Below the pieces are notes generated by a model, which was not told the origin of the DNA, did not search any database, and saw only the letters and a program-made list of their open reading frames with translations. From the NCBI GenBank assembly GCA_965220085.1, contig CBDCOZ010000003.1:640001-704000 (forward strand): DNA of 64,000 nucleotides, written 5' to 3'. The position numbers and the translations under genes were made by a program. Shown here in pieces: positions 8,595 to 62,927 of the stretch. This DNA comes from Candidatus Oxydemutatoraceae bacterium. Its GTDB lineage: Bacteria > Pseudomonadota > Gammaproteobacteria > Poriferisulfidales > Oxydemutatoraceae. The stretch's first letter is position 1. Every line of letters starts with the position of its first letter.

Positions 8595-8966
8595 GCGCTA
8601 TCGCAACGGGCATTCAAGAAGGAGTGTGTCGTGCGAGCGTTGCGGGTTGCTTGCGCTATCGCAACGGGCCTTCAAGAAGGAGTGTGTCGTGCGAGTGTTG
8701 CGGGTTGCTTGCGTTATCGCAACGGGCCTTCAAGAAGGAGTGTGTCGTGCGAGCGTTGCGGGTTGCTTGCGCTATCGCAACGGGCATTCAAGAAGGAGTG
8801 TCGTGCGAGCGTTGCGGGTTGCTTGCGCTATCGCAACGGGCCTTCAAGAAGGAGTGTGTCGTGCGAGCGTTGCGGGTTGCTTGCGCTATCGCAACGGGCC
8901 TTCAAGAAGGAGTGTGTCGTGCGAGCGTTGCGGGTTGCTTGCGCTATCGCAACGGGCCTTCAAGAA
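8595..8966. repeat. Tandem array of six 58-bp units (one 56 bp), each carrying a copy of the LEGPLR-stop gene end
   Basis: gcgctatcgcaacggg starts at 8595, 8653, 8711, 8769, 8825, 8883 and 8941; the last is the real gene end. Confidence 0.95.
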
Positions 8967-10209
8967 AGAGGCGCAAGCGCAAGCTCAGGTGCTCCACCAG
9001 ATGTATGTTCATCGTGCGGGCTTCGGTGTTGCCGGTGCCATCATAGTTCACCATGTAGGTGAAACTGGCGAAGTTGGGGGCGGCGGCGGAGTCTTCCGGG
9101 GGATAATAGATGAGCTCTCCATTTCGTATTGAGTCCCCGTTTACAGTGAGGTTGTCTGCAATGGCTACTGATCCTCCCAGGAGAAATGTGCCCCTGCCCG
9201 ATGCTATGGTGGTGATTACGGGCACGCTTTTCAGAGCGCCGGTGGGATCGTTCGGGAACATAAAGTCGGATGGCTTGAACCTGTAGGGCGCGTCTGCGTC
9301 GGCGGTAATCGGCACACTCACCGAATTGGCTCTGGCGATGATGGCGCCTGTGGTGCACAGCGTGGGGGCATCGGCGTCGCCGCCCTCTTCGGTGCCTATG
9401 CCGTCGGTGAAACGGAGACAAACGCGGATGTATTGGCCGATATGTTCCCGCCCCGGTGTGAAGGCGTCGGCGGTGGCTCCGGCGATGTTTTCGTATGTGC
9501 CAGCCTGGGTGGCGGACTGTTGCCATTGCCAACTGCGTCTGTGGGTGGGGATGCCGTTGGGCTCGGTGATGCCGGCAGTGCCGGCAATCAGTTCCGCATC
9601 CTCGTTGTAGGCGACGCCCGATGCCGCCGTGACCGTCGGTGCGCCGGTGGCCGCCGTATTTGTGGACGGCACCAGATCTACGGTGATGGTGGCGGCGGGC
9701 CCTTCGCTGTTTGCCGTCCAGGTAAAGGTGGTATAGCCCGCCATGGGCATGTCAGCGCTACGGGGAAAATACTTTACGGTGCCAATGTCAGCAAGGGGTA
9801 TATTCGCAATCGTTCGGCCTACAACAGTGACACCGCGCGTCAACTCAAACTGTCCGTCGCTTTGGAGCACCCCCAACGAAGTCGAGGTTATGCTCCCTGT
9901 GGCATTGGCGGGGGCGGTCTCAAAGTGTACGCTGGTCAAGGTATTGGCATTGCCAAACGGAAAATCACCCGCCGAGAAAGTATAACTGAGGCCCGCCGGC
10001 ACATAGATGGTGTTGTTCTGCGCCACAGGCGCGCTTTGCGCTTGGGCTTGCGCACAGGCAACAAACAGCGCTGGCAACATCAGCAATCGGAGGCTGCGCC
10101 GTATCATCGTTGCCCGCCGATAGGGGGGGGGGGGGGGGGGGGGGGCTATATAAACAGTGGCGGAAGCGCCGGGGGTGCCAGGCTGGTGACGAATTATTTT
10201 GATGTTCAT
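8944..10209 (-). CDS. LEGPLR-family secreted protein 1 (cadherin-like/Ig-like repeats); poly-C23 in frame
   Basis: GGAGA RBS before ATG 10209; poly-Pro from G23 at 10123-10145; signal peptide ...LFVACAQAQA; ends LSLRLRLFLEGPLR. Confidence 0.85.
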   Translation of the reverse strand: MNIKIIRHQPGTPGASATVYIAPPPPPPPYRRATMIRRSLRLLMLPALFVACAQAQAQSAPVAQNNTIYVPAGLSYTFSAGDFPFGNANTLTSVHFETAPANATGSITSTSLGVLQSDGQFELTRGVTVVGRTIANIPLADIGTVKYFPRSADMPMAGYTTFTWTANSEGPAATITVDLVPSTNTAATGAPTVTAASGVAYNEDAELIAGTAGITEPNGIPTHRRSWQWQQSATQAGTYENIAGATADAFTPGREHIGQYIRVCLRFTDGIGTEEGGDADAPTLCTTGAIIARANSVSVPITADADAPYRFKPSDFMFPNDPTGALKSVPVITTIASGRGTFLLGGSVAIADNLTVNGDSIRNGELIYYPPEDSAAAPNFASFTYMVNYDGTGNTEARTMNIHLVEHLSLRLRLFLEGPLR

Positions 10210-10325
10210 GATAAATCTCCGTTGATTAGCAGACGAAATATGCAACTATGCAACCGATTGCCTGCCCATGATAAATCTCCGTTGGTTAGCAGATGAAATA
10301 TGCGACATGCAACCGATTGCCCGCC
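10207..10325. repeat. Two ~60-bp direct repeats covering the RBS/start region of LEGPLR gene 1
   Basis: catgataaatctccgttg...atgcaaccgattgcc occurs at 10207 and 10267. Confidence 0.85.
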
Positions 10326-10326
10326 T

Positions 10327-10354
10327 ATGATACACACTACAAAATAATTTGCAA
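10327..10354 (-). promoter_or_regulatory. Putative sigma70 promoter of LEGPLR gene 1
   Basis: TTGCAA-16bp-TATCAT on the minus strand, in the conserved caggcgcTTGCAA context. Confidence 0.55.
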
Positions 10355-10421
10355 GCGCCTGTATGATGCCATGACATATTGGAAACTTTGGGCAAATATT
10401 GTGAATAGAGGAGTATCGGAC

Positions 10422-11291
10422 TTAACCAAACAGCGCCGGTTTTTCTTTTTCGCCCTGGTCTGCGCGGATGCGGTATTGTCCGCTTTCCAGTCGCTCGCGG
10501 GCGAAAGCGTGATATTCGGGGACCACCTCAAATCCGACATAATCCCGCTTCGCCATTTTGCTGACCACCGCAACCTGACCCGAGCCCATGAATGGGTCCA
10601 GAACCAGATCGCCCGGGTCGCTGGCGTAGGCGAGGATTTTTTTCACCAGTTCGGCGGGCAGCTTGGTCGGGGTCTTTTTGTCGCCTGTCCAGTATTCCCG
10701 CTTGATGACCCACACATCCTCCAGGTCTGCGTAAAGCATACTGCCGCCGTTATCGCGCCGCGCGCCCGGCGCAAAGCGGCAGTGCGGATTGAATTTCCGC
10801 TTGCGGTCGTCCTTGCACAAAAACAGGCAATGGTAATGCGAAGTCACAAACCGGCGGCGGCAAAACACGCCGAATTGATACTTCCAAATGATGTGGTTCA
10901 CCGTGACGAATCCGCACTCGTCCGCGGCGACCAGAATGTCTTTCAGGTTGTTCCAGCCGGAGAAAACAAAGGCGCTGCCGGCGGGGCGCAACAGGCGAAA
11001 CGCCTCGCGCATCCAGGCGCGGGAAAAGTCCGCGTATTCCGCCGCCGGAATTTCGTTGTATCCCTCCAAGACGCGCCCGTCTGTCCGGTTGTAGTTGGTG
11101 CGCGCCGCCTTGAAGTCAATCGCAAACGGCGGGTCGGTCACAATCAGATCCACCGAATCCGGCGGCATCGCGACCATTCCCGCAACGCAGTCGCCGCAAA
11201 AAATCTCGTTGCGCGGAGCCTCGGTTGCCGCGTCCGTCTCGTTCGCTCCGGATGACCGAGCGACCGCTCCCGCATGATTCCGATCGTTCAT
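10422..11291 (-). CDS. Orphan beta-class N4/N6 DNA methyltransferase
   Basis: DLIVTDPPF precedes VLDPFMGSG; no adjacent endonuclease; start taken at MNDRNH. Confidence 0.88.
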   Translation of the reverse strand: MNDRNHAGAVARSSGANETDAATEAPRNEIFCGDCVAGMVAMPPDSVDLIVTDPPFAIDFKAARTNYNRTDGRVLEGYNEIPAAEYADFSRAWMREAFRLLRPAGSAFVFSGWNNLKDILVAADECGFVTVNHIIWKYQFGVFCRRRFVTSHYHCLFLCKDDRKRKFNPHCRFAPGARRDNGGSMLYADLEDVWVIKREYWTGDKKTPTKLPAELVKKILAYASDPGDLVLDPFMGSGQVAVVSKMAKRDYVGFEVVPEYHAFARERLESGQYRIRADQGEKEKPALFG

Positions 11292-12771: not shown

Positions 12772-12783
12772 GGGGAGGGCACA

Positions 12784-13605: not shown

Positions 13606-14606
13606 TGGAGAAAAAAGAATTGATGCGTGTGATTGAGGCTTTGTTGATGGCGAGCAGCCGTCCGCTGAGCCCGAACGAGATGGGCAAGGTGATAGGCGAC
13701 GGACAAAAGCCTGTGCCGCGCAAGGTGTTGCTTGAGGCGCTGGCGGAGTTGGCGCGCGAGTGCGAAGGCAAGGCGTACGAACTGGTCGAGGTGGCGTCCG
13801 GCTACCGTTATCAGACGCGCGCGGAGTTTTCCGATTGGCTCGCTAAGTTGTGGGAACAAAAGCCGGCGCGTTATTCGCGGGCGGCGCTGGAGACTTTGGC
13901 TTTGATCGTCTATCGCCAGCCGGTGACCCGCGCTGTGATCGAAGACATACGGGGGGTCGCCGTCAGCACGAATATCATCCGCGGCTTTGAGGACCGGGGG
14001 TGGATTGAGGTGGTTGGCCATAAGGAGGTGCCGGGTCGCCCGGCGTTGTATGCCACGACCCGGGCTTTTTTGGATGATTTCAACCTGCGTTCGCTGGATG
14101 AGTTGCCGGAGTTGCCGCAACTGCGTTCGGCGTCGGAGGTGATGGCGGCGAATGCCGAGGAGCCGCTGCCGACAGAAGGGAGTGCGCCGCCGTCGGAAGA
14201 GAGTGCGCCGCCGACAGAAGAGAGTGCGCCGCCGTCGGAAGAGAGTGCGCCGCCGCCGGAAGGGAGTGCGCCGCCGTCGGAAGAGAGTGCGCCGCCGCCG
14301 GAAGAGAGTGCGCCGCCGACAGAAGAGAGTGCGCCGCCGTCGGAAGAGAGTGCGCCGCCGTCGGAAGAGAGTGCGCCGCCGTCGGAAGAGAGTGCGCCGC
14401 CGTCGGAAGAGAGTGCGCCGCCGCCGGAAGAGAGTGCGCCGCCGCCGGAAGAGAGTGCGCCGCCGACAGAAGAGAGTGCGCCGCCGACAGAAGAGAGTGC
14501 GCCGCCGACAGAAGAGAGTGCGCCGCCGACAGAAGAGAGTGCGCCGCCGCCGGAAGAGAGTGCGCCGCCGACAGAAGAGAGTGCGCCGCCGCCGCTGGCG
14601 AGTTGA
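13602..14606 (+). CDS. scpB: Segregation and condensation protein B with repetitive tail
   Basis: YSRAALETLALIVYRQPVTRA.IEDIRGV, PGRPALYATT. Confidence 0.95.
   Translation: MMEKKELMRVIEALLMASSRPLSPNEMGKVIGDGQKPVPRKVLLEALAELARECEGKAYELVEVASGYRYQTRAEFSDWLAKLWEQKPARYSRAALETLALIVYRQPVTRAVIEDIRGVAVSTNIIRGFEDRGWIEVVGHKEVPGRPALYATTRAFLDDFNLRSLDELPELPQLRSASEVMAANAEEPLPTEGSAPPSEESAPPTEESAPPSEESAPPPEGSAPPSEESAPPPEESAPPTEESAPPSEESAPPSEESAPPSEESAPPSEESAPPPEESAPPPEESAPPTEESAPPTEESAPPTEESAPPTEESAPPPEESAPPTEESAPPPLAS
14175..14594 (+). repeat. 20 x 21-bp coding tandem repeat, E(E/G)SAPP(S/T/P)
   Basis: gaagagagtgcgccgccg(tcg/aca/ccg) repeated; copies counted from the protein. Confidence 0.97.
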
Positions 14607-14626
14607 CATGCTGATAAGATGACAAG

Positions 14627-20811: not shown

Positions 20812-21414
<603 letters not shown>

Positions 21415-22807: not shown

Positions 22808-23126
22808 CCCGGTGGCTCAGGCACGGGAAGGAGTTGCGCAGGCGCGCTTGTTCGGTCAAATCTATGGTGGCAACGGCAACGCCAGATGACCCGGTGGCTC
22901 AGGCACGGGAAGGAGTTGCGCAGGCGCGCTTGTTCGGTCAAATCTATGGCGGCAACGGCAACGCCAGATGACCCGGTGGTTCAGGCACGGGAAGGAGTTG
23001 CGCAGACGCGTCTGTTCGGTCAAATCTATGGTGACAACGGCAAGCGCTAGATAACCCGGTGGCTCAGGCACGGGAAGGAGTTGCGCAGGCGCGCCTGTTC
23101 GGTCAAATCTATGGTGACAACGGCAA
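22802..23126. repeat. Three extra 82-83 bp copies of the carbon-nitrogen hydrolase 3' end
   Basis: Units start at 22802, 22884, 22966 and 23049; the last is the real gene end. Confidence 0.93.
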
Positions 23127-31626: not shown

Positions 31627-32276
31627 GCTCGCGCTGTCGTAGCGGCCTACCTCAAATGGGGTATGCTCGCTCCCTTGTGCGCACCCTGCAACGCTCCCCT
31701 CTTCGGTACGCCGACGGGGATGGCGCGAGAGGGGAGTGTGGTTTATCCCCCTCTCCAGCGAGCGAAGCTCGCTGACTCTCCCACGAGGGGAGAGTATTGC
31801 TTGCCACAAGGAAGCGTGTTGGCGCAAGTCTTGCGATGAGATTGCTCGCGCTGTCGTAGCGGCTTACCTCAAATGGGGTATGCTCGCTCCCTTGTGCGCA
31901 CCCTGCAACGCTCCCCTCTTCGGTACGCCGACGGGGATGGCGCGAGAGGGGAGTGTGGTTTATCCCCCTCTCCAGCGAGCGAAGCTCGCTGACTCTCCCA
32001 CGAGGGGAGAGTATTGCTTGCTACAAGGAAGCGTGTTGGCGCAAGTCTTGCGATGGGATTGCTCGGCTGTCGCAGCAGCCTACCTCAAATGGGGTATGCT
32101 CGCTCCCTTGTGCGCACCCTGCAACGCTCCCCTCTTCGGTACGCCTTCGGGGATGGTGCGAGAGAGGAGTGTGGTTTATCCCCCTCTCCAGCGAGCGAAG
32201 CTCGCTGACTCTCCCACAAGGGGAGAGTATTGCTTGCTACAAGGGAGCATGTTAGCGCAAGTCTTGCGATGGGATT
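31627..32276. repeat. Three tandem ~217-bp palindrome-rich (REP/MITE-like) units
   Basis: Units at 31627, 31844 and 32061; internal hairpins cagcgagcgaagctcgctg, ctctcccacgaggggagag, tacctcaaatggggta. Confidence 0.9.
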
Positions 32277-32283
32277 GCTCGCG

Positions 32284-32433
32284 CTATCGCAACGGGCCCT
32301 CCAAGAAGATGCGCAGCCGCAGGCGCATATCAAATCGATGGTCATGGCGGCGGGCGGAAGCCGCGCCGGCTTGAGTCCGACCATCGGCGCCGCCTTCAAT
32401 GGCAATACTCACTTGTGCGCGTGTGTTTGCCAT
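32284..32433 (-). pseudogene. 49-aa mini-ORF or relic ending RLRLRIFLEGPLR, coupled by TAATG to the large upstream gene
   Basis: MANTRAQ...FDMRLRLRIFLEGPLR*; another frame retains AAMTIDL, resembling the pre-terminal TMNIHL of paralogs. Confidence 0.6.
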
Positions 32434-35159: not shown

Positions 35160-35408
35160 AGTATCTCTCCAAATGGCTTGTCTGGTGAATACGATTATGC
35201 CACGAGTGTTGGCACTCTTAGTGCTATGTACTCTATCACAAATCATAGTCTTCCTCCTGATGTTCGGTCTTGTCTAACAAATATAGTTATATCGATGAGT
35301 GCCGTACTCTTAGCATTTGTACTCTGCCACAAAGCGCAAGTTATCAAATTTCCATTCATGGGTAGCCTTCCGATAGGGTACTCTTATGTACTGCACTACG
35401 AGTATCGC

Positions 35409-42502: not shown

Positions 42503-43373
42503 CTACCGCAACGGGCCTTCTAAGAAGAGACGCAAGCGCAAGCGCACATCGGAAGACACCAGGTTGATGGTCATGGTATGTTGTGCGCTGGATGCCGTGC
42601 CATCGCCATCGCCGACGGTGAATCTGAAGCTGGCAAAGTTGGCGGCGGGGGTGGTGTTGGCCGGGGGATGATACCTGAGGGTGCTGATGACATCCCGGCT
42701 GAGGGAGGTGCCGTCGGTGACCGCCACCTGGGAGCTGCCGCTGGCTCTGGTCAGGGTGCCCTTGCCCGATGCTATGGTTTCAACTATGGTTACGCTGGCC
42801 AGGTCGCTGGTCTCCTCGTCCATGAATGGGAAGTCATCGGCCATGAAAATATATGGATTTTCCGCGGTTGCGGCGGAGGACACATTCACAGAGGCATCGT
42901 CGCTGGTGGGCGCATCATTGACAGCGACCACAGCGGTGGCTATCTGCAGGCATCGATTGTCCGTATTGCCGGCGCTGTCGAGAGTGTCCGCGCAGACCCG
43001 CAGATACTTGCCCACATTGGCCTGCAACGGCGTGAAAGTGCCACCGGCGTGAGCGTAAGTGTAGGTGCCGCCATTGGCGTCGGCCTGAAACCATCTCCAA
43101 GATGTGACGTGGACGTCGGTGGTTGGCGTACTGTCAGGGTCCTCAATGGTGCCCTTGTTGGCGGTGATGGGGGAGTCCTCAGTGGGGACGTTTATGCCGC
43201 TGGCGTAGGTGACGGCGGGTTCCCCGGTGGCGTTGCCCTGCGCCTGCGCTTGAGTGCAGACAACAAACAGCACTGGCAACATCAGCGAGCAGAGGCTACG
43301 CCGAGTTAGTCTTGCCCGCCCATTAGGGGGGGGGGGGGGGGGGGGGGGTAGTATTAAAAGTATTTTGGTTCAT
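42503..43373 (-). CDS. LEGPLR-family secreted protein 3; frameshifted at poly-C23 (phase OFF as assembled)
   Basis: ATG 43373 gives MNQNTFNTTP7 then TAA; one C fewer continues ...RRSLCSLMLPVLFVVCTQAQA into ORF 42503-43282, ending VRLRLRLFLEGPLR. Confidence 0.82.
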
Positions 43374-43920: not shown

Positions 43921-44085
43921 GCGCTTTTTTATCAAGCCTCAACGACTGCCTCCGGCGACCGGTTGCGTCGTCGTTGCGAGGTGTCGCTATTGCCTGTTGG
44001 CTTTTGTTGAAGCCGGCAATCCGGAATGTTTCTGGCATTATGCAGCCTTCGGTTGCAATCGCAGCAGAGGCGGTATAATGGGCGA

Positions 44086-48339: not shown

Positions 48340-49528
48340 ATGAATCGACAGACTTCTAATACTTCCCCCTCAAGCAGGCGGAAGATCTTGCATTTGCAGG
48401 CATGTAGTGCGAAGCAAAAAACGTTAATACTACCCCCCCCCCCCCCCCCGCTATGTAAATAAGGGGATTGCGGGCGTTTCGCCGTCTCGCCTCTTCACCC
48501 GTTTTTTATCACCCGCATATCGCAACCCGCCATCCGCCGTAGCGCGGCTGCGTTGCCCGGCTGTGCCCGGTCTGCGGCTTTCGCTATGGCGGCGATTTGT
48601 GGCGCTCTTTGCGCCCGCACGGGCGGCGGCGCCGACCGACGGGGTTGCATCAAGAACTGCCATGCATTGCCTGCTGGCATTGTCCCTGGCATTGGGCGCA
48701 ACCTGCGCCTCGGCCCAGACAAGCGGCATCCCCGCCGCCCAGGATATCAGCATTGATGCCGAGGTTTGGGGTAGTTCCTACGAGTTTGCTCTCAACGACT
48801 TTGCCTTCAAAAATGCGGATGGCAGCCCCACCACCAGAAGTGATTTCGTCGTGGAAATAGCCACTTTGCCTGACCGTGGCATATTGGTTAAAAGAAGCGG
48901 GCGGGTTATTCGCATCAATCAGGTGCAGAGTGCGATCCACCCTTCCGACTTAAGGGGAGGCGAGTCTTTGCAATTACTCTGGGTGCCTCCCTCTGATGTC
49001 ATTTCCGAAACCCCCGGCTATACCAGTTTCACTTATCGCGGCTACAGTTTCAGGGATCCCAGCACCTACAGTTCGCATGGCACCGTCACCATCAATATGG
49101 TGGCGCTTCGCGAAGCGCAACAAATCGCCGATGGTGCGCCCACGGTGACGGGTAGCACGGGCATTTCATATGATGTCAATGCGCCGCTGACGGCTTCCAT
49201 CTATGGCGTGACTGATCGCAACGGCATTGATACAAGCACCCTGGGCTGGAAGTGGCAACAGGCCGATGCGCCCGTCAGCGGTGTTCCCGCAGACAGCGCC
49301 TACATTGACATAGCGGGCACCATGACAACGGGCGGCCTCACCTCCGCCTTCACGCCGCGCGCCGCCCATGTCGGCAAATACATTCGCGTATGCGCCTCCT
49401 TCAAGGACCAGCACCCCATGCCGGAATCCGAGGAGCAATGCACCATCGGTCTTCCTGTGGAAGGTGCGTCGTCCGGCGCAAGTTTGCGTTTGCGTCTGCG
49501 TCTCTTTCTGGAAGGGCCGTTGCGGTAA
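48340..49528 (+). CDS. LEGPLR-family secreted protein 4; frameshifted at poly-C17 (phase OFF)
   Basis: ATG 48340 after GAGGAG; C17 at 48433-48449 leads to TAA at 48460; 16 C would read RYVNKG...RFLSP... into ORF 48563-49528. Confidence 0.82.
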
Positions 49529-50631
49529 TGGAAACTTCACATAGGAGATATTTAAAAATGTTTGCAGTACTTACATCCATGCATCGCCTTGCGGGCATAG
49601 CGAGCGCTTCGCCGCATAAGCTTGCCGGTCGCTTTTTATCGCCCGCACATAGCAACCCGCCATCCGCAAAGCGGTGCGTGTCGGCTGTGCGCGGGTTGTC
49701 GCTGTGGTTGCGGTCTGTTGCGGTGCGGAAGGCAGGCGCCGGCGGCGCCGTAGCTGGATGCGCCATGCATTGCCTGCTGGCATTGTCCCTGGCGTTGGGC
49801 GCAACCTGCGCCTCGGCCCAGACAAGCGGCATCCCCGCCGCTCAGGATATCAGCATTGATGTCCCTGTTGGGAACCTTACCTACATCTTTCAGGAAAACG
49901 ACTTTGCCTTCAAAGATGCGGATGGCAGCACTGCCACCAGAAGCGAATTCGGCGTGGAACTCATCACTTTGCCTGACCGCGGCATATTGATTAGAAGAAA
50001 CGGAGGATTAATCCGCATCGATGGGACGAGACTCTTCGCTCCCACCTTTGACGCCGATTCTGGCAACAATCTGTTCTGGGTGCCTCCCTCTGATGCCATT
50101 TCTGCCGCCCCCGGCTATGCCAGTTTTGCTTATCGCGGCGTCGCTTTCAGCGATGTCAACGCCATAAGTTCGCATGGCACCGTCACCATCAATCTGGTCA
50201 TAGACGAAACCTCGCAGGTAGCCGCCACCGGTGTGCCCGCGGTGACGGGCGGCACGGGCGCTTCATATGGAATCAATGCGCCGCTGACGGCTTCCATCTA
50301 TGGCGTGGCTGATGACAATGGCATTGATACAAGCACCCTGAGCTGGAGGTGGGAAGAAGCCGATATCCCCGCCACCGGCACCTCTGTAGCCCGTGAGGAT
50401 GCCTACGGCGATATAGCGGGTGCCGCGACAACGGGCGGCATCACCTCCGGCTTCACGCCGCGCGCCGCCCATGTAGGCAAATACATTCGCGTATGCGCCT
50501 CCTTCAAGGACCAGCACCCCACGCCGAAAGACGAGAAGCGATGCAACGTCGGCGTTCCTGTGGTCAATCCGTCGTCCGGCTCAAGTCTGCGTTTGCGCCT
50601 GCGTCTCTTTCTGGAAGGGCCGTTGCGGTAA
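49528..50631 (+). CDS. LEGPLR-family secreted protein 5 (paralog of protein 4), coupled by TAATG
   Basis: METSHRR leader, ...ATCASAQ signal cleavage, ends LRLRLRLFLEGPLR. Confidence 0.85.
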   Translation: METSHRRYLKMFAVLTSMHRLAGIASASPHKLAGRFLSPAHSNPPSAKRCVSAVRGLSLWLRSVAVRKAGAGGAVAGCAMHCLLALSLALGATCASAQTSGIPAAQDISIDVPVGNLTYIFQENDFAFKDADGSTATRSEFGVELITLPDRGILIRRNGGLIRIDGTRLFAPTFDADSGNNLFWVPPSDAISAAPGYASFAYRGVAFSDVNAISSHGTVTINLVIDETSQVAATGVPAVTGGTGASYGINAPLTASIYGVADDNGIDTSTLSWRWEEADIPATGTSVAREDAYGDIAGAATTGGITSGFTPRAAHVGKYIRVCASFKDQHPTPKDEKRCNVGVPVVNPSSGSSLRLRLRLFLEGPLR

Positions 50632-50674: not shown

Positions 50675-51418
50675 ATGAATAGACAAATTTCTAATACTGC
50701 CCCGCATTGGCGGGCAACACTCACCCGGCTTAGCCTCCGGTCGCCGATTGCGTCTTCACGCGGGGCGTCTGATTTAAGTTCGCATCATCTTAAAATTGCG
50801 GGAGGGATTTGCGCGGCGATGATGCTCGCTTGCGCATTCGCCGCGAACAGCGTGTCAGCGCAAACTTGTCCGCAGGGACAGGAAAATGTTCGCGGAACTT
50901 GCCGCAATGTTTGCGCCGACGGAGAAATGCGAATCACTTCCACAGTGTCGGGTTTCGAATTTAACACCGGTTGCTTTCCCGATGCGGAGATTGCCATTGT
51001 GGATGACTGCAGGGATGCGGGATGGGGGGACGGCACCGGCGACGGAGTCGGAATATTTTTTTCACTGGGGCTGTTGGGTTGCCAAATTCCGTCCGAGCTT
51101 TATGCCAGCACATCCTCGCGAGCAGACAGCCTCTGCTACATCCGAGGGGGCGCGCCATTATGCGCAGACATGTACGGCGCTCCGCCGGCTTTTCCGAAAG
51201 CCGCGGAACACCCCGATGTCACAGTAGGGTCCAATGCTTTCTTTGTGGCAAATTGCGACCGCAACGGGAATGTCCCCGGCGGTTATCCGCCGGACCGCAA
51301 CTTGAACGGCGAAACCGAATGCAGTTGCAATCCGGGTTCGCACTTCGGCGAATATCCGAACTGCGCTCCGGGCCCGCGTTTGCGTCTGCGTCTCTTTCTG
51401 GAAGGGCCGTTGCGGTAA
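50675..51418 (+). CDS. LEGPLR-family secreted protein 6, cysteine-rich body
   Basis: RBS GGAG; extended leader, ...AANSVSAQ; many Cys; ends PRLRLRLFLEGPLR. Confidence 0.82.
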   Translation: MNRQISNTAPHWRATLTRLSLRSPIASSRGASDLSSHHLKIAGGICAAMMLACAFAANSVSAQTCPQGQENVRGTCRNVCADGEMRITSTVSGFEFNTGCFPDAEIAIVDDCRDAGWGDGTGDGVGIFFSLGLLGCQIPSELYASTSSRADSLCYIRGGAPLCADMYGAPPAFPKAAEHPDVTVGSNAFFVANCDRNGNVPGGYPPDRNLNGETECSCNPGSHFGEYPNCAPGPRLRLRLFLEGPLR

Positions 51419-52584
51419 TGGAAACTTCACATAGGAGATATTTAAAAATGTTTACAGCACTTACATCCATGCGCCGCCTTGCGGGCATAGCGGGCGCTTC
51501 GCCGCATAGGCTTGCCGGCCGCTTTTTATCACCGACACATCGCGACTCGCCATCCGTCGTAGCGCGGTTGCATCGCCCGGCTGTGGTCTGGCTGTTGCTT
51601 CCGCTGGCGCTGCTGTCCGCTCTGGCCTCCCCCGCGTTCGCGCAGTCGCTCAGCTTTGCATTTGATCTGAGTGATCGGGTAACGGTCACAGGCCGGACCA
51701 TAAGCTGGCAGTTGCCCGCAGTTCGGCAGAGCGGCGCCTACGCCTATGCGCTCGCACCCGCAACCCTGCCCGCAGGGATGACATTCTCCGCCGCCACCCG
51801 GCAAATTACGGGCACAGTCACAGCCGCCATGGCCAAAACGGAGTACACATACACCGCCACCAACGCAGACGGCGGCTCGGTGAGCGGGACTTTCGCCATT
51901 GAAGTGTTTCAGGGGCCCACATGGGAAGCCAGAGTTGGCTTCTCCCTCGCCACAACACTAGCCACTCTGGCAGTAGCTCAGGACTTGGGGGGCGATAATC
52001 AAATTTGGCTGGCGGGCGAGGCTTTGCCTGGCATGTCGATCAACCCCGTTGGCGGCACCATACCATATGCCTATACGCTATCGCCCGCGACCCTGCCCGC
52101 CGGTGTGACCGGCGCAATAAACCCTCAAATTACTGACTGGTTTCAGTTTTCCGGAACACCGACAGAAGCCATGCCCACCACCACCTACACGCTGACGGCG
52201 ACGGATTCGGCCAGCCCTCCGGTGTCCGTCGATTACACCTTCACCATCACGGTGGAAGCCGATACCGCGCCCGATTTTGGCGATGCATCGGTGGGCACCC
52301 GTATTTGGCCGCCCGGCACGACCGCAACGCTGGTATTGCCCGCAGCCACCGGCGGCAATGGCGCCATCACCTATGCGATCACTCCGAATCTGCCCGACGG
52401 CCTCGCCTTTGATGCCGACACCCGCACCATCAGCGGCGCACCCTCAACCGCTACGGCCGTCGCCGAATACACCCTCACCGCCACCGACGACGAAGGCGAC
52501 ACGGGCACGCTGACCTTCGGCATAGACGCGATGCACCCCATGCGCTTGCGTCTGCGCCTCTTCTTAGAAGGCCCGTTGCGGTAG
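51418..52584 (+). CDS. LEGPLR-family secreted protein 7 with three putative-Ig (He_PIG-like) repeats
   Basis: TAATG start; LPAGMTFSAATRQITGT, LPDGLAFDADTRTISGAP; ends MRLRLRLFLEGPLR. Confidence 0.87.
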   Translation: METSHRRYLKMFTALTSMRRLAGIAGASPHRLAGRFLSPTHRDSPSVVARLHRPAVVWLLLPLALLSALASPAFAQSLSFAFDLSDRVTVTGRTISWQLPAVRQSGAYAYALAPATLPAGMTFSAATRQITGTVTAAMAKTEYTYTATNADGGSVSGTFAIEVFQGPTWEARVGFSLATTLATLAVAQDLGGDNQIWLAGEALPGMSINPVGGTIPYAYTLSPATLPAGVTGAINPQITDWFQFSGTPTEAMPTTTYTLTATDSASPPVSVDYTFTITVEADTAPDFGDASVGTRIWPPGTTATLVLPAATGGNGAITYAITPNLPDGLAFDADTRTISGAPSTATAVAEYTLTATDDEGDTGTLTFGIDAMHPMRLRLRLFLEGPLR

Positions 52585-52895: not shown

Positions 52896-54889
52896 ATGAA
52901 CCGACAAACTTCTGATACTTCCCCCTCTAGCAGGCGGAAGCGATCGCATTTTCGAGCATATATCTTGAAATACAAAACCTTTAATACCCCCCCCCCCCCC
53001 CCCCTCCTCCTGTAGCCACTGAACAGCGGTTCAGTTGCCGCAGCCTTCGGTCGCTGACCATCCTCACTTTGTTTGCGTTGTGCGCTCAGGCACAGGCGGC
53101 CACGCCAGTGCCCAAGGACAGTAGCATAGATGTGTATATATCTGCCACCGCCACCAACCCGTACACTTTCAAGGCCGGTGATTTCCCGTTTGAAGATGCC
53201 GATGGCGATGCTCTTTCAAGCATCAGCATAGAGACCCTGCCCGATAAGGGTACCCTGCGGGTGGGCGAATCAGATGCCACCCAGTTCCAGCAAGTGACCG
53301 CCGCCGCCATCCCCACCATCACCTGGCGCCCCGCATTGAATCAGTCCGCAGGCAACAACCACACCAGCTTCACATTTGGCGTACACACCAGGGGCAGAAG
53401 CATAATGACCGGCACCGTCACCATCAACCTCATATATGTGAATTCTCCCGCCACCGGCGCCATTATCATTCTGGACACAGGCGGCTTTGCCCTGACCGAC
53501 ACCCACGCACCGGACGAACACGAGGCTCTGGCCGCCCGCGCGGACTCCATAACCGATGCCGACGGCTTGAATGTCAACCTGACCTCAAGCCAGCGATGGC
53601 AATGGAGCGCGGATGACGCGGGCAACGGCGTATTCGCCGCCATCGCCGGAGCCACCATGAGCACCTTCACCCCCCGGGCCGGGCATACGGGCAATGCCCT
53701 GCAGGTCTGCTACAGCTTCACCGATGACCGCGGCGGCATGGAGCAGGTGTGCGCCACCACTCAGCCAGTCGCCGATGTGAACAGCGCTCCGGTGGCCATA
53801 GACAACACCGTATCCGTGCCCTGGACCGCCACCGAGAATGCCCAATTCTCCATGAACCTGAACCACTTCACCTTTGAGGATGCCGACCATCATGGCCTGC
53901 ACAGCCTCATCATAACCGCGCTGCCATCAAGGGGCACTCTTACCTTCGCCGGCGTCACTGTGAGATCTTCATTTCTGCCTTCCCAACTAAGCAGATCCGG
54001 TCTCGTTGCGGGCCGCCTCGCATACTATCCGGCGCCAAATGTGGCTCAACAGGCCGCCGCAGGGTACGACAGCTTCACCTTTCAAGTGGTCGACAATGGC
54101 CCCGGCGCAGAAGCCAGCAGCGCATCCGCCACCCTGACCATAGATCTGGTGGCCCCGGCAATGCAGATGCCAGCCACTGGCATGCCCAGCATCATCGGAG
54201 TTCTGGACCCGGTCACCGGCGGCTATCAGGAAGGCCAAATTTTGGCCTCTAACACAGTTGGAATAGACGACCCCAACGGCATAAACCAGCAGACCCTGAC
54301 AAGGGAATGGCAGGTATCTGCCACCGAGAACGGACCCTGGACCCAGGAATCAAGCAGCTTATTGCTGCTGGAACAAAAGCATGTGGGCGGGTATGTGCGC
54401 TTGTGCATCAGCTTTGATGACCTGCACCCCGCCCCCAACAGAGAGGGGCCTTTGTGCACCATGGCTTTCCCCGTTGCCAACCTCGGCGACCAGCCAATAC
54501 CGCAAGACCGCACCATCCAGGTGCGATTGGATGCCAGCATGGCAAGCCCCTACAGATTCACCGCAGCCGACTTCCCATTCGAGGATGAGGATAACGACGG
54601 CCTTGCAAGCATCACCCTGGAATCAATCCCTGCCGTCGGCACGTTGCGCGTGGGCGATGCCGCCGCCGTCGTCGGGCAGGTTGTGGATGTCGACGACATC
54701 CCCGCCATTAACTATTACCCGGAGCCCGGTCAAGCCTCCGCTGAGGGCTACGCCTCTTTCAGATTCAGGTTAACCGACGACAGCAACGACGGCGGGCGCA
54801 GTGACAGCTTAGGGGCTGGCACCATCACCATAAATCTGGGGGGGCTTACCTTGCGCTTGCGCCTCTTCCTGGAAGGGCCGTTGCGGTAA
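52896..54889 (+). CDS. LEGPLR-family secreted protein 8 (cadherin-like repeats); frameshifted at poly-C18 (phase OFF)
   Basis: ATG 52896; C18 at 52987-53004 leads to TAG at 53013; 19 or 16 C would read ...CRSLRSLTILTLFALCAQAQA into ORF 53069-54889. Confidence 0.82.
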
Positions 54890-55586: not shown

Positions 55587-56787
55587 ATGAACCGACAAAA
55601 TTTTAATACTGCCTCCTTTAACAGGAGGAAGCGATCGCATTTTCGAGCATATATCTTGAAATACAAAACCTTTAATACCCCCCCCCCCCCCCCCCCGCTA
55701 TGTAAATAAGGGGGTTGCCAGCGTTTCGCTGTATCGCCTTCTCACCCGTTTTTTATCACCGACACATCGCGACTTGCCATCCGTCGGAGCACGGTTGCAT
55801 CGTCTGGCCGCGGCCGGGCTGCCGGTTGCGCTATTGTTGCTGTCTGTTGCGGCCTCCCCCGCGCTCGCGCAGAGCAGCTTTGATGGCAGCCTACCGGATC
55901 GGAGGTCTGCCACAAATGTTAGCGTATTCTGGACTCTCCCCAAAGCTCTTCCGGAAGGCGCCTACACCTATGCGCTTGCGCCCGCCACCCTGCCTGCGGG
56001 CCTGACATTCTCGGCCTCCACCCGGCGAATCACGGGTACGACCACAGCCGCCATGGCCGAAACGGAGTACACATACACCGCCACCGCCGCAGACGGCGGC
56101 ACACTGAGCGGGACTTTCACCATTGAAGTATTGCGGGGGCCCACATGGCTTCTGGGCGCCAGGTTCTCTACTCTGATGTCTACCCAGGAGTTGGGGGGCG
56201 ATAATCAGATTTGGCTGGCGGGCGAGGCTTTGCCGGGTTCTTATGAAATCTTCCCCAGTGGCGGCGTTAGGCCCTACACCTATACCCTGTCACCCGCGAC
56301 CCTGCCTGCCGGTGTGACCGGCGCAAGCAACGATCTTGGCTTTTTTGAGTTTTCCGGAACACCGACAGAAGCCATGCCCACCACCACTTATACGCTGACG
56401 GCGACGGATTCGGCCAGCCCCCCGGTGTCCGCCGCATACACTTTCACCATCACGGTGGAAGCCGATACCGCGCCCGATTTTGGCGATGCATCGGTCGGCA
56501 CCCGTATTTGGCCGCCCGGCACGACCGCAACGCTGGTATTGCCCGCAGCCACCGGCGGCAATGGCACCCTCACCTATGCGATCACTCCGGATCTGCCCGA
56601 CGGCCTCGCCTTTGATGCCGACACCCGCACCATCAGCGGCGCACCCTCAACCGCTACGGCCGTCGCCGAATACACCCTCACCGCCACCGACGACGAAGGC
56701 GACACGGGCACGCTGACCTTCGGCATAGACGCGATGCACCCCATGCGCTTGCGTCTGCGCCTCTTCTTAGAAGGCCCGTTGCGGTAG
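55587..56787 (+). CDS. LEGPLR-family secreted protein 9 (He_PIG-like, paralog of protein 7); frameshifted at poly-C19 (phase OFF)
   Basis: ATG 55587; C19 at 55678-55696 leads to TAA; 18 C would read RYVNKG...RFLSPTHRDLPS into ORF 55774-56787. Confidence 0.82.
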
Positions 56788-59458: not shown

Positions 59459-59468
59459 TGTTAGAGCG

Positions 59469-60263: not shown

Positions 60264-60314
60264 AGCGGTCTGTTTCCCCGGCGATTACGATATGTCAAAG
60301 CGCTCTCAAAAGCT

Positions 60315-61157: not shown

Positions 61158-61406
61158 GTGGATACTCTGTCATCGCTGTATCAAGCCATTGAGTCCTTCG
61201 GGATACATCGCGGCGGCTGGCTGTTTGTCGCGATATTGTCGGTGATACCGGCGCTCGTCAGCGGCAACATGTTTGTTTTGTGTTTGTCCGAAGTCTTAAA
61301 CCGCAACGTGTCTTTGCAGGCGGCGCGGAAGCCTTTGCTGGCCAATTTTGCCGTGGCGCTTGTCAGTGCGTCGGTTATCGCTATCGCAACATATATGTGC
61401 TTGTAG
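61158..61406 (+). CDS. Small hypothetical membrane protein
   Basis: GTG after GGAG; two hydrophobic segments. Confidence 0.5.
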   Translation: MDTLSSLYQAIESFGIHRGGWLFVAILSVIPALVSGNMFVLCLSEVLNRNVSLQAARKPLLANFAVALVSASVIAIATYMCL

Positions 61407-61743
61407 GAGCGGCGCTCGTCAGCGGCAACATGTTTGTTTTGTGTTTGTCCGAAGTCTTAAACCGCAACGTGTCTTTGCAGGCGGCGCGGAAGCCTTTGCT
61501 GGCCAATTTTGCCGTGGCGCTTGTCAGTGCGTCGGTTATCGCTATCGCAACATATATGTGCTTGTAGGAGCGGCGCTCGTTAGCGGCAACATGTTTGTTT
61601 TGTGTTTGTCCGAAGTCTTAAACCGCAACGTGTCTTTGCAGGCGGCGCGGAAGCCTTTGCTGGCCAATTTTGCCGTGGCGCTTGTCAGTGCGTCGGTTAT
61701 CGCTATCGCAACATATATGTGCTTGTAGGAGCGGCGCTCGTCA
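61251..61743. repeat. Three tandem 161-bp copies of the small gene's 3' part
   Basis: Units at 61251, 61412 and 61573, almost identical. Confidence 0.93.
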
Positions 61744-61802
61744 AACGGTTTGTTGCTCCGAATCAGCCGGAGCACTTTATAATGGGGCGTATCAACCGCT
61801 AT

Positions 61803-61875
61803 GCCGGAGTAGCACAATCGGTAGTGCAGCGCATTTGTAATGCGAAGGTTGGGGGTTCAATTCCTCTCTCCGGCA
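61803..61875 (+). tRNA. tRNA-Thr(TGT)
   Basis: GCCGGAGTAGCACAATCGGTAGTGCAGCGCATTTGTAATGCGAAGGTTGGGGGTTCAATTCCTCTCTCCGGCA. Confidence 0.95.
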
Positions 61876-61903
61876 CCGTCTGTTGCGGCAAGACAAATGC
61901 AAA

Positions 61904-62252
61904 AGGTGAGTCGGTCTGTAAGCCGGGTTCTGTCGCGGACGATCATTCATCTGGGATCTGCGTCTCCGCAAACCTCAAGCAGTCTACCCGGAGGCATAAC
62001 ACGGACCATGTTTGCGTATAACGCGCGCCTCTCTATTTAACCTTGCTCCGGACGGGGTTTGCCATGCCGTTGGTGTCTCCACCAACGCGGTGCGCTCTTA
62101 CCGCACCTTTTCACCCTTGCCCTGAAAGTCAGGGCGGTATATTTTCTGTTGCACTTTCCATAGACTCGCGTCTTCCGGGAGTTACCCGGCGTCCTTGTCC
62201 TGAGGAGCCCGGACTTTCCTCCGCAATATGCGGCGATCGCCCGACCGACTCC
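61904..62252 (-). ncRNA. rnpB: RNase P RNA (type A)
   Basis: Minus strand reads GAGTCGGTCGGGCGATCGC...GAGGAAAGTCCGGGCTC...ACAGAACCCGGCTTACAGACCGACTC. Confidence 0.96.
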
Positions 62253-62579
62253 CTGTCAGGATAACACATCGATGTTTGAAGCGGGTTTTGGCGGCTTGTG
62301 CCCGACTCCATCCGGCAACAATGAAAGTTGTAAAGGCGCTGCTCAACCGCTATTTTCATGTAGCCATTGACGTATTGCTTTGCCGAGTTGCTCGGCGATG
62401 CGGGCGCACAATTCCGCGCAGGGCACTCGCGCTATCGCCAATGTCTTGTCCGCCCCGAAAGCACACCCATCCGCATAACGCCGACAGCCGAAGTTGTGAC
62501 AGACACCGTCATAGCCGCGCTGTAACATCGCCTGTGCGCCGTGCCATGCGGACGCACAACCCCGCGCAGGGCACTCGCG

Positions 62580-62927
62580 CTATCGCAACGGGCCTTTCAG
62601 GAAGAGGCGCAAGCGCAGAGGAGCGCTCTCAAACTCTTCACGGGCATGCGTGCCAAACGAGGCGCAAGCACAAGCGCAGGGGAGCGCTCCCATACGAGTG
62701 CGGGCGGAAAGTTTTGCAGTAGTTTTCTCCCTCGCCGCATCGTCCTTCGCTTGTGGCTCGGACTCTGCGACTCCCGCGACGGGAGCGTCATGACAGCGCT
62801 CGCACAAACGCTTCTGCGCAGAAAAATCACGCGGTGATTTCGTGCTGTCAGACCGTTCGTCAGGTGATTCATGCCACCTGTCTAATAAGTTGAGCAGATC
62901 CCCTGAATGAGTGTTATTGTCCGGCAA
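62580..62927 (-). pseudogene. Degenerate LEGPLR-family remnant ending LRLRLFLKGPLR
   Basis: E>K variant of the motif; a second, out-of-frame degenerate LRLCLRL copy near 62655-62682; no signal peptide. Confidence 0.55.

Follow-up and report, generated by a model that had tools for sequence, protein, structure and literature searches.

Completion of a protein fold in trans has known parallels. Chaperone-usher pili (Pap, Fim, Caf1) rely on donor-strand complementation and exchange, and the type V pili of Bacteroidia on strand exchange. SpyTag/SpyCatcher, made from the split CnaB2 domain, and split GFP with its strand 11 are laboratory constructs, the former sealed by an isopeptide bond. The CTDs of the T9SS are complete domains of ~70-100 residues borne by the cargo itself. 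Here we describe a short C-terminal tag that most likely plugs each of the many secreted proteins that carry it into a shared adaptor.

The host is a small symbiont-type bacterium, a gammaproteobacterium. A preliminary description of the window, the whole 64,000-nucleotide stretch analysed here, had reported 11 ORFs with a common C-terminal tag, and a six-frame scan returns exactly the same 11 ends, all stopping at LRLR(L/I)FL(E/K)GPLR (Table 1). Nine of them carry the E-type termini LRLRLFLEGPLR or LRLRIFLEGPLR, and the ORF at 62580 carries the K variant, LFLKGPLR. The tag occupies the C-terminal 12-14 residues, in which hydrophobic residues and Arg alternate before FLEGPLR, and has neither a TM helix nor a basic tail; the stop codon always falls exactly two residues past G-P/A. 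The common tag is confirmed as real and is far larger in extent than first described: among ORFs of at least 100 aa, the only ones counted, the whole 2.49 Mb genome holds 190 that are tagged. Its recurrence is not chance, since a 24-nt degenerate pattern has 214 matches in the genome and its reversed control has 0. No sorting model in Pfam or NCBIfam matches it, so within these searches the earlier placement of the tag outside the described sorting domains holds.

The bodies in front of the tag had been called cadherin-like, He_PIG-like and Cys-rich, and the same families were assigned to the window genes; Pfam places those ending at 54889 and 32433 together in Cadherin_3/Big_9/Cadherin_4. The bodies do differ in family within the window, as claimed, but genome-wide single-linkage BLAST clustering puts 161 of 190 in a single group of modular, mosaic proteins (16 further clusters exist), so that common descent accounts for much of the sharing of the tag. 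A signal peptide was flagged in 146 of the 190 by a crude regular expression and by-eye judgement only, and many of the unflagged ORFs display, by eye, the same hydrophobic leader. The ORFs at 32284 and 62580 are short remnants lacking a leader, as the preliminary description implied. Poly-C tracts at the 5' ends of ~82 tagged genes suggest that these genes may undergo phase variation.

Table 1. Tagged ORFs, poly-C tracts and tandem repeats in the window (minus-strand ORFs end at the first coordinate given, plus-strand ORFs at the second)
Feature	Coordinates	Strand	Details
Tagged gene, 433-aa ORF, cadherin/Ig-like body	8944..10245	-	tag codons 8947-8982, stop 8944-8946
5' poly-C tract in gene 8944..10245	10123-10145	-	upstream ATG in frame
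Tagged gene, 937 aa, Cadherin_3/Big_9/Cadherin_4	32433..35246	-	tag 32436-32471 (LRLRIFLEGPLR)
12-nt C-run in gene 32433..35246	35123-35134	-	in frame
76-aa (stop-to-stop) remnant ORF, duplicated 3' end with tag	32284..32514	-	tag 32287-32322; just downstream of gene 32433..35246
Tagged gene, 288 aa stop-to-stop	42503..43369	-	tag 42506-42541; in-frame ATG at 43282
23-nt poly-C in gene 42503..43369	43326-43348	-	puts upstream ATG leader out of frame
Tagged gene, 366 aa stop-to-stop	48428..49528	+	tag 49490-49525
17-nt poly-C in gene 48428..49528	48433-48449	+	upstream ATG leader out of frame
Tagged gene, 357 aa, no Pfam family	49558..50631	+	tag 50593-50628
Tagged gene, 247 aa, Cys-rich body, no family	50675..51418	+	tag 51380-51415
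Tagged gene, three He_PIG Ig domains	51448..52584	+	tag 52546-52581
Tagged gene, 634 aa stop-to-stop, Big_9/cadherin-like domains	52985..54889	+	tag 54851-54886
18-nt poly-C in gene 52985..54889	52987-53004	+	upstream leader out of frame
Tagged gene, 375 aa stop-to-stop, He_PIG	55660..56787	+	tag 56749-56784
19-nt poly-C in gene 55660..56787	55678-55696	+	upstream leader out of frame
119-aa remnant ORF, no leader, K-variant tag	62580..62939	-	tag 62583-62618; adjoins RNase P RNA gene
58-nt tandem repeat, 6.6 copies	8591..8970	.	tag 3' half, stop codon and ~39 nt of downstream sequence
217-nt tandem repeat, 3.1 copies	31627..32289	.	directly downstream of tagged remnant at 32284

Codon comparisons demonstrate, at the level of sequence, that the tag is under selection as a peptide. 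Just 11 different 12-aa peptides are encoded by the 163 distinct 36-nt versions found in the 190 ORFs; entropy over the last 12 codons is ~0 at second positions and 0.2-1.4 bits at third positions, and pairwise codon differences over the last 9 codons comprise 66,065 synonymous versus 8,433 non-synonymous changes. The synonymous variation noticed in the window is real and recurs genome-wide. Variation in the stop codon also stands, although only TAA and TAG had been seen and all three are used (TAG 117, TAA 49, TGA 24). Other genera keep the tag, ending in FLEGPLR, FLEGPFR, FLEGALE or FLEGALQ, with different codons and different downstream DNA.

These counts bear on the reading that the tag is a functionless stump of a truncated domain, its 36 nt kept alike by gene conversion or duplication among the members of a single multigene family. 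The single mosaic family that holds most bodies would suit such an origin, as would the tandem repeats of the tag's 3' half and the duplicated 3' ends, and the ~12 nt past the stop codon are semi-conserved in this genome, which shows that DNA-level spread contributes. Gene conversion, however, would level third positions instead of leaving them variable beside nearly invariant second positions; the peptide persists across genera whose codons and flanks differ, the position of the stop is fixed, and a strand-less acceptor is retained. We consider a stump very unlikely. It has also to be asked whether the conserved 3' end and 5' leader are mainly DNA homology arms for cassette recombination that shuffles surface-protein bodies. 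Conserved gene ends around mosaic middles, 3' tandem repeats, orphan 3' fragments and poly-C contingency tracts, which suggest a variable surface repertoire, all fit this reading, but the tag is conserved much more strongly as a peptide than as DNA, a 36-nt stretch so rich in synonymous differences is a poor substrate for recombination, and the matching acceptor is left unexplained. It is to us the least probable of the alternatives, although homology-arm recombination could occur as a secondary effect beside the main explanation.

The acceptor is identified by an unannotated C-terminal domain, a β-sandwich followed by a dockerin, for which a search with the acceptor family finds 1049 relatives at E<=1e-3. 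The tag had been likened to a first strand ending in FLEGP and an aromatic residue, and single-chain relatives do open the domain with just such a basic-hydrophobic strand, ~40-50 residues ahead of a DWVLVELR motif. All 190 tagged C-termini align to the domain profile and end at position 52, the P of FLEGP, with scores that the shortness of the match keeps low (median 4.3 bits). All 52 stand-alone acceptors align as well, their mature N-termini lying from about position 56-59 and their signal peptides filling the strand-1 columns. Profile alignment thus shows tag and acceptor as adjacent, non-overlapping parts of one domain. This genome (G000) encodes the domain body exactly once and nowhere in fused form; the single copy is a 322-aa secreted protein encoded outside the window (G000:C3:469169-470137), whose mature N-terminus begins where the tag stops. 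Of the two alternatives offered earlier, docking by strand complementation in a split domain is the one supported, its missing remainder being one separate secreted protein that starts in the profile where the tags end.

Comparison of related genomes shows unsplit, adjacent-split and dispersed-split forms, as read from their gene sequences, all within one bacterial family. In G001 the domain is fused; of its 30 matches there, the majority lie at the ends of giant ORFs, which reach 17,496 aa in length. In G015, G017 and G002 (Ca. Porisulfidus), an acceptor gene that has a start and a signal peptide of its own comes after each giant tagged gene, with a gap of 30 nt between the two in G015. G000 combines ~190 tags with a single unlinked acceptor. 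No tags were found with the tag pattern in G006 and G010, despite three tandem acceptors apparently lacking strand 1, and G018 has 16 tags and no acceptor match in an assembly that is 85% complete and in 260 contigs.

Structure prediction is consistent with this division. Co-folding of tag and acceptor gives ipSAE values of 0.83, 0.84 and 0.82, and the best of 3 controls gives 0.00; the mark applied is reached by 58 of the 80 solved complexes and by 2 of the 110 mismatched pairs used for calibration, counts that hold only roughly here because the prediction used alignments of our own. The runs share at least 87% of contacts, with partner pLDDT of at least 71, and the partner interface is residues 94-110 of a 110-residue fragment, that is, the tag plus 5 residues. 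The tag is predicted to sit inside the acceptor sandwich, where it contacts strands 139-141, 172-177, 192-199 and 212-221 and the mature N-terminus, 32-36. Such a score for two halves of a domain that is unsplit in relatives may mirror an intact fold learned by the model, not binding in the cell. The single-chain model has a pLDDT of 85.6, with strand 1 in a block at pLDDT 96. Its best Foldseek matches in the PDB are type II X-module-dockerin dyads (4u3s_B, E=0.014, probability 0.96; 2b59_B, TM 0.38), nothing in the PDB being found at E<=0.001. By sequence, the domain profile matches the solved dockerins 2vn5_B (3.3e-4) and 2b59_B (3.6e-4), and Pfam finds Dockerin_1 in 4 and Cohesin in 5 of 43 single-chain members.

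It is also conceivable that the partners of the tag strand are other tagged proteins or another envelope β-protein (BamA, a porin edge), giving self-assembly or outer-membrane tethering, and that the acceptor has an unrelated role. The strand is amphipathic and alternating, and a gene ratio of 190:1 is demanding for a one-to-one adaptor. The tag's terminal residue, however, is Arg, whereas that of the BAM β-signal is aromatic; the register runs on continuously into the acceptor, the two genes adjoin in relatives, and the complex score falls to 0.00 once an unrelated protein replaces the acceptor. We regard this pairing as highly improbable.

The acceptor gene lies directly upstream (11 nt) of a gene for a 1369-aa GlyGly-CTERM protein and a rhombosortase gene, and adjoins type II secretion genes, with GspK and GspL ~5 kb upstream and a GspD-type secretin at C3:454279. 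The unit of acceptor, large GlyGly-CTERM protein and rhombosortase is kept in G000 and G011 (rhombosortase scores of 93.7 bits, against a cut-off of 84, and 127 bits, respectively), and the acceptor and GlyGly-CTERM pair also in G015, G016 and G017. The 1369-aa protein belongs to no Pfam family, and its N-terminal part has neither detectable homologues nor a successful fold prediction (pLDDT 33.5). No Pfam cohesin in the genome exceeds the cut-off, one match remaining sub-threshold at 14.4 bits.

Type II secretion bears on the possibility that the tag is a linear sorting signal for an outer-membrane translocon or processing enzyme (T9SS-, exosortase- or sortase-like), its likeness to strand 1 being merely historical. 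The tag is proteome-wide, strictly C-terminal and on Sec-exported proteins, type II secretion genes are present, and little is understood of substrate recognition by that system. Yet the tag lacks the TM helix and basic tail of such signals, the acceptor begins in the profile exactly where the tag ends, tagged and acceptor genes are neighbours in G015, G017 and G002, and the complex prediction passed against its controls. A sorting signal is in our judgement unlikely. The preliminary description's other alternative, a dedicated outer-membrane transporter reading the tag, gained no support: a genome search found no autotransporter, usher, exosortase or sortase.

We propose instead, as the probable explanation, docking in trans by strand complementation: the tag would be the detached strand 1 that completes the acceptor. 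Some 190 adhesin-like proteins would keep strand 1 as a C-terminal tag, with the rest of the domain made once and separately. The Sec-exported acceptor would offer an incomplete β-sandwich, into which the cargo tag would insert after export, rebuilding the domain. Gene order suggests that the loaded acceptor may fix the cargo to the cell surface through its dockerin-like tail, the likeliest anchor being the 1369-aa GlyGly-CTERM protein, processed by the adjacent rhombosortase, and that passage across the outer membrane may use the neighbouring type II secretion system. This anchoring half of the model is weak, and one acceptor gene for ~190 tagged genes poses an awkward stoichiometry problem for docking in trans. 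The earlier idea of docking into a shared surface anchor is supported as to docking and a shared partner, but the acceptor itself resembles a soluble, secreted adaptor that ends in a dockerin-like tail, linked to an anchor only by gene order.

The proposed system and the pili are alike in having an Ig-like β-sandwich that is short of one strand and is completed in trans, in the periplasm or at the surface, by a short amphipathic strand. Whereas in pili the incomplete subunit is a pilin, the strand comes from a chaperone or the next pilin and a polymer is assembled at an usher, here the C-termini of ~190 cargo proteins, unrelated or mosaic, carry the strand, one adaptor common to them all is the incomplete partner, the genome search found no usher, and the missing strand is the first, not the last. 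The C-terminal Ig-like module followed by a two-repeat calcium-type dockerin recalls the cellulosomal type II cohesin/X-module-dockerin arrangement (2b59, 4u3s). These dyads are the best matches in both fold and sequence, though weak ones (Foldseek E=0.014, TM 0.33-0.38; profile E ~3e-4, in the dockerin part only); the host here, however, is a Gram-negative gammaproteobacterium, the Pfam search identified no cohesin partner, and the X-like module is divided between two genes.

With GlyGly-CTERM/rhombosortase, PEP-CTERM/exosortase and LPXTG/sortase the tag shares a short signature at the extreme C-terminus of many secreted proteins per genome and a partner gene found through co-occurrence and adjacency, and a genuine rhombosortase and GlyGly-CTERM protein adjoin the acceptor. 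Unlike those signals, it does not have the tripartite structure of signature, TM segment and basic residues, and it implies no protease or transpeptidase; its partner is a predicted structural half-domain and not an enzyme. T9SS CTDs likewise mark many secreted or surface proteins with a C-terminal β-sandwich module, but in Bacteroidota, whereas the cargo here keeps just 12 residues and belongs to a gammaproteobacterium. A parallel in design is offered by the engineered split tags, in which a strand of ~12-13 residues serves as a universal tag by docking onto the separately supplied remainder of a domain. Those tags, however, were made in the laboratory, and no isopeptide bond like that of SpyTag is indicated here.

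The 12-residue C-terminal tag carried by secreted, adhesin-like proteins, LRLR(L/I)FL(E/K)GPLR followed directly by a stop codon, is present at all 11 ORF ends for which it was claimed in the preliminary description (11/11 coordinates recovered in a six-frame scan of the window). Nine of these ORFs are full genes, as had been stated, and the other two, ending at 32284 and 62580, are short remnants, the latter with the E-to-K variant. The window (C3:640001-704000, C3 being a contig) is a small sample of the tagged genes in its genome, which comprises 2,492,841 bases in 3 contigs. Over the whole genome, the last seven tag residues plus stop give 221 six-frame matches, and 190 of these belong to ORFs that measure 100 aa or more from stop to stop, including five giants of 6,024 to 15,193 aa. 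A degenerate 24-nt tag pattern gives 214 matches versus 0 for its reversed control. The 190 ORFs sum to 488,667 nt, or 19.6% of the genome, which is an upper bound since they were summed stop to stop; tagged adhesin-like genes, some 190 of them, thus make up about a fifth of the genome.

Selection on the tag is at the peptide level. The 36-nt tag exists in 163 distinct versions among the 190 ORFs, yet these encode 11 distinct peptides, among them LRLRLFLEGPLR (131 copies) and its I (29) and V (21) variants. The synonymous variation that had been noticed inside the tag is found both around the window ORF ends, where such differences are many, and genome-wide. Codon entropy is close to 0 at second positions and 0.2-1.4 bits at third positions; pairwise differences over the last nine codons are synonymous in 66,065 cases versus non-synonymous in 8,433; and all three stop codons are in use. 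Two alternatives place the cause in the DNA instead, with the tag being either a functionless stump kept by gene conversion or a recombination arm. About 12 nt 3' of the stop are also semi-conserved genome-wide, which may reflect shared ancestry of the 3' ends, and the 3' end of tagged genes is also present as tandem repeats or orphan copies, so DNA-level spread does contribute to the tag; it cannot account for the codon pattern. The consensus of the post-stop sequence is roughly CGCGAG, then C or T, then AACCC, and it can pair with the last tag codons as a short hairpin with the stop codon in its loop. Readthrough or frameshifting beyond the stop was rejected, as the three downstream frames have no common continuation; the use of three stop codons also opposes readthrough, as do the start codons and signal peptides that the acceptors described below possess.

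We propose that the tag is the first strand of a domain whose remainder is a separate secreted protein. The main lead to this comes from relatives of the genus Ca. Porisulfidus (G015, G017 and G002), which have only one or two strict tags each, on giants of about 3,500 aa. Lying 3' of each tagged giant is a gene for a 265-276-aa protein, the acceptor, which has a start codon and signal peptide of its own; in G015 the gap is 30 nt. These acceptors share the motifs DPYC, DWVL.ELR and HRNH and have a dockerin-like end. The window's genome encodes exactly one homologue, of 322 aa. Apart from a sub-threshold Dockerin_1 match, Pfam and NCBIfam gave no family that covers the acceptors, and a search of 1.84 billion representative proteins gave 1049 relatives at E<=1e-3; cluster names looked up for four of them were absent. 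Many of these relatives form the C-terminus of large secreted proteins whose other modules are of the peptidase, CARDB, cohesin or lectin type. When the whole domain resides in one chain, its first strand is basic-hydrophobic and closes with FLEGP and an aromatic residue, some 40-50 residues ahead of DWVLVELR. The FLEGP-type first strand of a surface-protein domain, to which the preliminary description had likened the tag, is indeed seen in these single-chain relatives.

A domain profile built from 43 single-chain members places both products in one register. All 190 tagged C-termini align to it with the P of FLEGP at position 52; so short a match gives weak individual scores (median 4.3 bits). 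All 52 stand-alone acceptors align as well, and their signal peptides occupy the expected place of strand 1. Cargo ends at about position 54 and mature acceptors begin at about 56-59, and therefore the two are adjacent, non-overlapping pieces of one domain. Both tag and acceptor proteins have leaders for Sec export (read by eye), and the two co-occur in genomes, as would a split strand-1 tag/acceptor system. The split-domain reading put forward earlier is supported by the register in one profile, by adjacency in relatives and by complex prediction; computational support for it is good, and we think it probable that tag and acceptor form a split domain.

Structure prediction points the same way. 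The model of a single-chain member (pLDDT 85.6) places strand 1 inside a block at pLDDT 96. Its top Foldseek matches in the PDB, all above E=0.001, come from cellulosomal scaffoldins (E=0.014, probability 0.96, TM 0.33-0.38); they are type II X-module-dockerin dyads, in which an Ig-like X module is packed on a dockerin and which bind type II cohesin. At the sequence level, the last ~70 positions of the family profile (A2) match solved dockerins (3.3e-4 and 3.6e-4), and the acceptor profile (A3) does so at 0.014. Pfam Dockerin PF00404 denotes two calcium-binding loop-helix repeats scoring above the Pfam cut-off; against it, the Porisulfidus acceptor P0001 reaches E=0.017 and 15.8 bits, below the cut-off of 22.9, and the acceptor of the window's genome has no Pfam match. 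Single-chain relatives contain Dockerin_1 in 4/43 cases (best 3.5e-6) and Cohesin in 5/43.

When the mature acceptor was modeled with the last 110 residues of one window gene, the complexes scored 0.83, 0.84 and 0.82, and the best of three controls 0.00; because the halves come from a domain that is intact elsewhere, a passing score expresses likeness to that domain and is no proof of binding in the cell. In the benchmark, this score was reached by 58/80 solved complexes and 2/110 mismatched pairs. Contacts agreed between runs to at least 87%, and partner pLDDT was at least 71. The partner interface comprises residues 94-110, that is, the tag, which lies on acceptor strands 139-141, 172-177, 192-199 and 212-221 and contacts the acceptor's first mature residues, as continuity of the chain would demand. 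Acceptor pLDDT was 63-65 with the tag versus 50-52 with unrelated partners.

Acceptor-family matches occur in 16/61 genomes searched (the window's own genome, G000, counted), and 16/16 are inside this bacterial family. G000 belongs to a genus separate from Porisulfidus in the same family (kinship table), and the housekeeping genes of the window look gammaproteobacterial. Porisulfidus is described in passages of PMC9123188 and PMC12988363 as a sponge-associated gammaproteobacterial genus and an outgroup to SUP05. The domain is unsplit in G001 (e.g. L033), where most of its 30 matches end giant ORFs (up to 17,496 aa) with their own strand 1, which makes this relative useful for comparison with the split states. 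Porisulfidus genomes display the adjacent-split state, and in G000, with its one acceptor and ~190 tags, the parts are dispersed. Fused, adjacent-split and dispersed-split forms thus all occur within one family, as an evolutionary series.

A looser tag pattern applied to 19 family genomes found tags in 12 (G000, 215; G016, 27; G018, 16; G011, 12; G015, 8; G003, G007 and G017, 7 each; G012, 5; G002, 4; G005 and G013, 1 each), with reversed controls at 0 everywhere except 1 in G012; the endings FLEGALE, FLEGALQ and FLEGPFR are genus-specific. Tag and acceptor co-occur in G000, G002, G003, G007, G011, G012, G015, G016 and G017, and G005 and G013 pair an acceptor with a weaker, single tag match. 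There are three exceptions. G018, 85% complete in 260 contigs, has tags and no acceptor match; G006 (L029) and G010 (L027) have three tandem stand-alone acceptor-like genes and no tag by the pattern used. The acceptor-like genes of G006 and G010 each apparently begin directly after strand 1, and these two genomes have many GlyGly-CTERM-type ends in place of tags. The strict pattern retrieved 4 loci from public collections, three of them in Ca. Porisulfidus MAG records; the fourth, on a Thermoanaerobaculia contig, is a chance match in an off-frame, high-GC helicase-like region.

The neighborhood of the acceptor gene suggests how a rebuilt domain might be anchored. The gspK and gspL genes end ~3-5 kb upstream of it, and a gene for a GspD-type secretin is 15 kb away. 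Beginning 11 nt 3' of it is the gene for a 1369-aa protein with a C-terminal Gly run, hydrophobic stretch and Arg-rich tail (read by eye), followed by a rhombosortase gene (93.7 bits, cut-off 84). G011 has the same unit of acceptor, large GlyGly-CTERM protein and rhombosortase (127 bits), and G015, G016 and G017 have the acceptor/GlyGly-CTERM pair, judged from coordinates. Based on this context, tagged proteins and acceptor would meet following Sec export, the dockerin tail of the rebuilt domain would tie the cargo to the rhombosortase-processed protein, and the parts would cross the outer membrane by type II secretion. We regard this anchoring route as plausible, at somewhat less than an even chance. 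No cohesin partner was identified: Pfam Cohesin has one match in the genome, at 14.4 bits and under the cut-off. Homologue searches with the N-terminal part of the 1369-aa protein found only itself and one weak family match. ESM Atlas scores for this protein (0.82-0.87) fall below the 0.9 lead threshold, and the cluster at rank 10, with Cohesin on 13% of its members, is a lead only; an AlphaFold2 model of residues 45-330, made without an alignment, had pLDDT 33.5 and was set aside. The interval that separates the acceptor from the type II secretion genes contains a repeated gene unit (see table), in which a gene for a small coiled-coil membrane protein and a rhodanese-like gene are joined by a fragment that duplicates the preceding gene's 3' end; a rhodanese-like gene 5' of the acceptor also occurs in G007 and G011.

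Many tagged genes further appear to be switchable. In 82/190 tagged ORFs genome-wide, the 5' leader contains a run of 9 to 28 C, placed after a short, conserved start peptide and ahead of the signal-peptide core. Relative to the upstream ATG, 19 of the 82 genes are in frame, 59 are out of frame and 4 are without an ATG, counts that inherit the error-prone homopolymer lengths of assemblies. The pattern resembles phase variation by strand slippage in a very large contingency repertoire. The stretch is reproduced in Logan contigs of run X1; they possibly come from the same sample, so they add no independent support. Raw Hi-C reads of X3 cover nothing but the poly-C tracts and themselves consist of poly-C; they are most likely artefacts and therefore uninformative on variation in tract length. 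The mature N-terminus of several giant tagged ORFs has an acidic, calcium-loop-like DYD.DDDGLIEI followed by a LEQLNA.R.DLDGDG-type stretch, a possible second module for docking, opposite the tag.

Poly-C tracts, repeats and neighboring features (window positions unless prefixed C3)
Feature	Position	Copies	Remark
Poly-C tract	10123-10145		minus-strand gene
Poly-C tract	35123-35134		minus-strand gene
Poly-C tract	43326-43348		minus-strand gene
Poly-C tract	48433-48449		plus-strand gene
Poly-C tract	52987-53004		plus-strand gene
Poly-C tract	55678-55696		plus-strand gene
Tandem repeat, 58-nt unit	8591-8970	6.6	directly 3' of tagged gene; unit is 3' half of tag, stop codon and flank
Tandem repeat, 21-nt unit	14164-14591	20.4	
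Tandem repeat, 82-nt unit	22798-23127	4	
Tandem repeat	31627-32289		directly 3' of tagged gene
Tandem repeat, 84-nt unit	43636-43921	3.4	
Tandem repeat, 161-nt unit	61249-61743	3.1	99% identical
tRNA gene	61803-61875		beside 161-nt repeat
RNase P RNA gene	61903-62252		322.6 bits; beside 161-nt repeat; tagged remnant at 62580 just past it
Repeated gene unit	C3:466033-468440		5' of acceptor gene
Acceptor gene	C3:469169-470137		
Gene for 1369-aa protein	C3:470148-474257		
Whole ~50-aa terminal segments including tag	C3:513720-514187		tandemly repeated; an example from elsewhere in the genome
Giant ORFs with N-terminal acidic motif	C3:1770458, C3:1323205, C3:1082670		ORF ends; examples

As a tentative account of the whole, ~190 adhesin-like proteins, each with a 12-residue plug, might compete for one secreted socket, whose dockerin tail would bind a rhombosortase-processed scaffold after type II secretion, with poly-C switching of many of the genes. 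Such a display could be seen, equally tentatively, as the 'adhesin cellulosome' of a Gram-negative symbiont built on a split X-dockerin, with a new class of sorting signal that acts by fragment complementation instead of by a translocon or sortase. Docking by strand complementation, if that is what the tag does, would embody a new principle of bacterial protein sorting and anchoring, in which a proteome-wide C-terminal signal is read by the missing rest of its own domain instead of by an enzyme or a translocon. It would also explain how a 2.5 Mb symbiont-type genome accommodates ~190 surface proteins, each spending 12 residues versus a domain of roughly 200-250. The system would open a first route to the function of a C-terminal domain that is widespread (1049 relatives) but unannotated, being without a model in Pfam or NCBIfam. 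It would also connect adhesin display with rhombosortase and type II secretion, and offer protein engineering a natural, genetically compact peptide tag/catcher pair. Docking can be tested directly, since a synthetic peptide and a single recombinant protein suffice.

The remaining alternative is that the tag is a direct signal for a translocon or enzyme. The contention that it lies outside described sorting models is borne out by the 8/11 window tagged ORFs that were compared with Pfam (E<=0.1) and NCBIfam (E<=1), which give body domains only (Cadherin_3, Big_9, Cadherin_4, He_PIG and a weak tandem-95 repeat), with no NCBIfam match for PEP-CTERM or another sorting model, and exosortase, sortase, usher and autotransporter families have no match in the genome. 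We consider this alternative, the stump, the recombination arms and pairing with other partners unlikely even when taken jointly. PEP-CTERM proteins end in a PEP motif, TM helix and basic cluster and are accompanied by an exosortase gene, whereas the tag stops 2 residues past G-P with no hydrophobic helix, and exosortase PF09721 has no match in the genome at E<=0.001. The Gly-rich motif, TM helix and Arg-rich tail that GlyGly-CTERM proteins present to rhombosortase are absent from tagged proteins and present in the acceptor's 1369-aa neighbor. Tagged proteins likewise lack the LPXTG-like motif that precedes a TM helix and basic tail in sortase substrates, and sortase PF04203 has no match in the genome. 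A T9SS CTD is a complete beta-sandwich of about 70-100 aa on the cargo, found by family models, whereas the conserved stretch here is only 12-14 aa with no Pfam or NCBIfam CTD match. The BAM beta-signal is the C-terminal strand of an outer-membrane barrel, and its last residue is aromatic; the last tag residue is instead Arg in 190/190, and the bodies are Ig/cadherin-like rather than barrels.

A full-text literature search found no relevant paper on the tag, the domain motifs, donor-strand/dockerin/symbiont combinations or Thioglobaceae/sponge/adhesin, and neither the searchable literature nor Pfam or NCBIfam yielded a description of the tag/acceptor system. In mechanism, donor-strand complementation in pili comes nearest to it. 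Chaperone-usher systems combine an usher, a PapD-like chaperone and pilins that lack their last strand; here usher PF00577 has no match in the genome, and the acceptor lacks its first strand instead. The nearest fold analogue of tag plus acceptor domain is the X-dockerin dyad. As a sorting or docking principle, the tag stands apart from known C-terminal signals.
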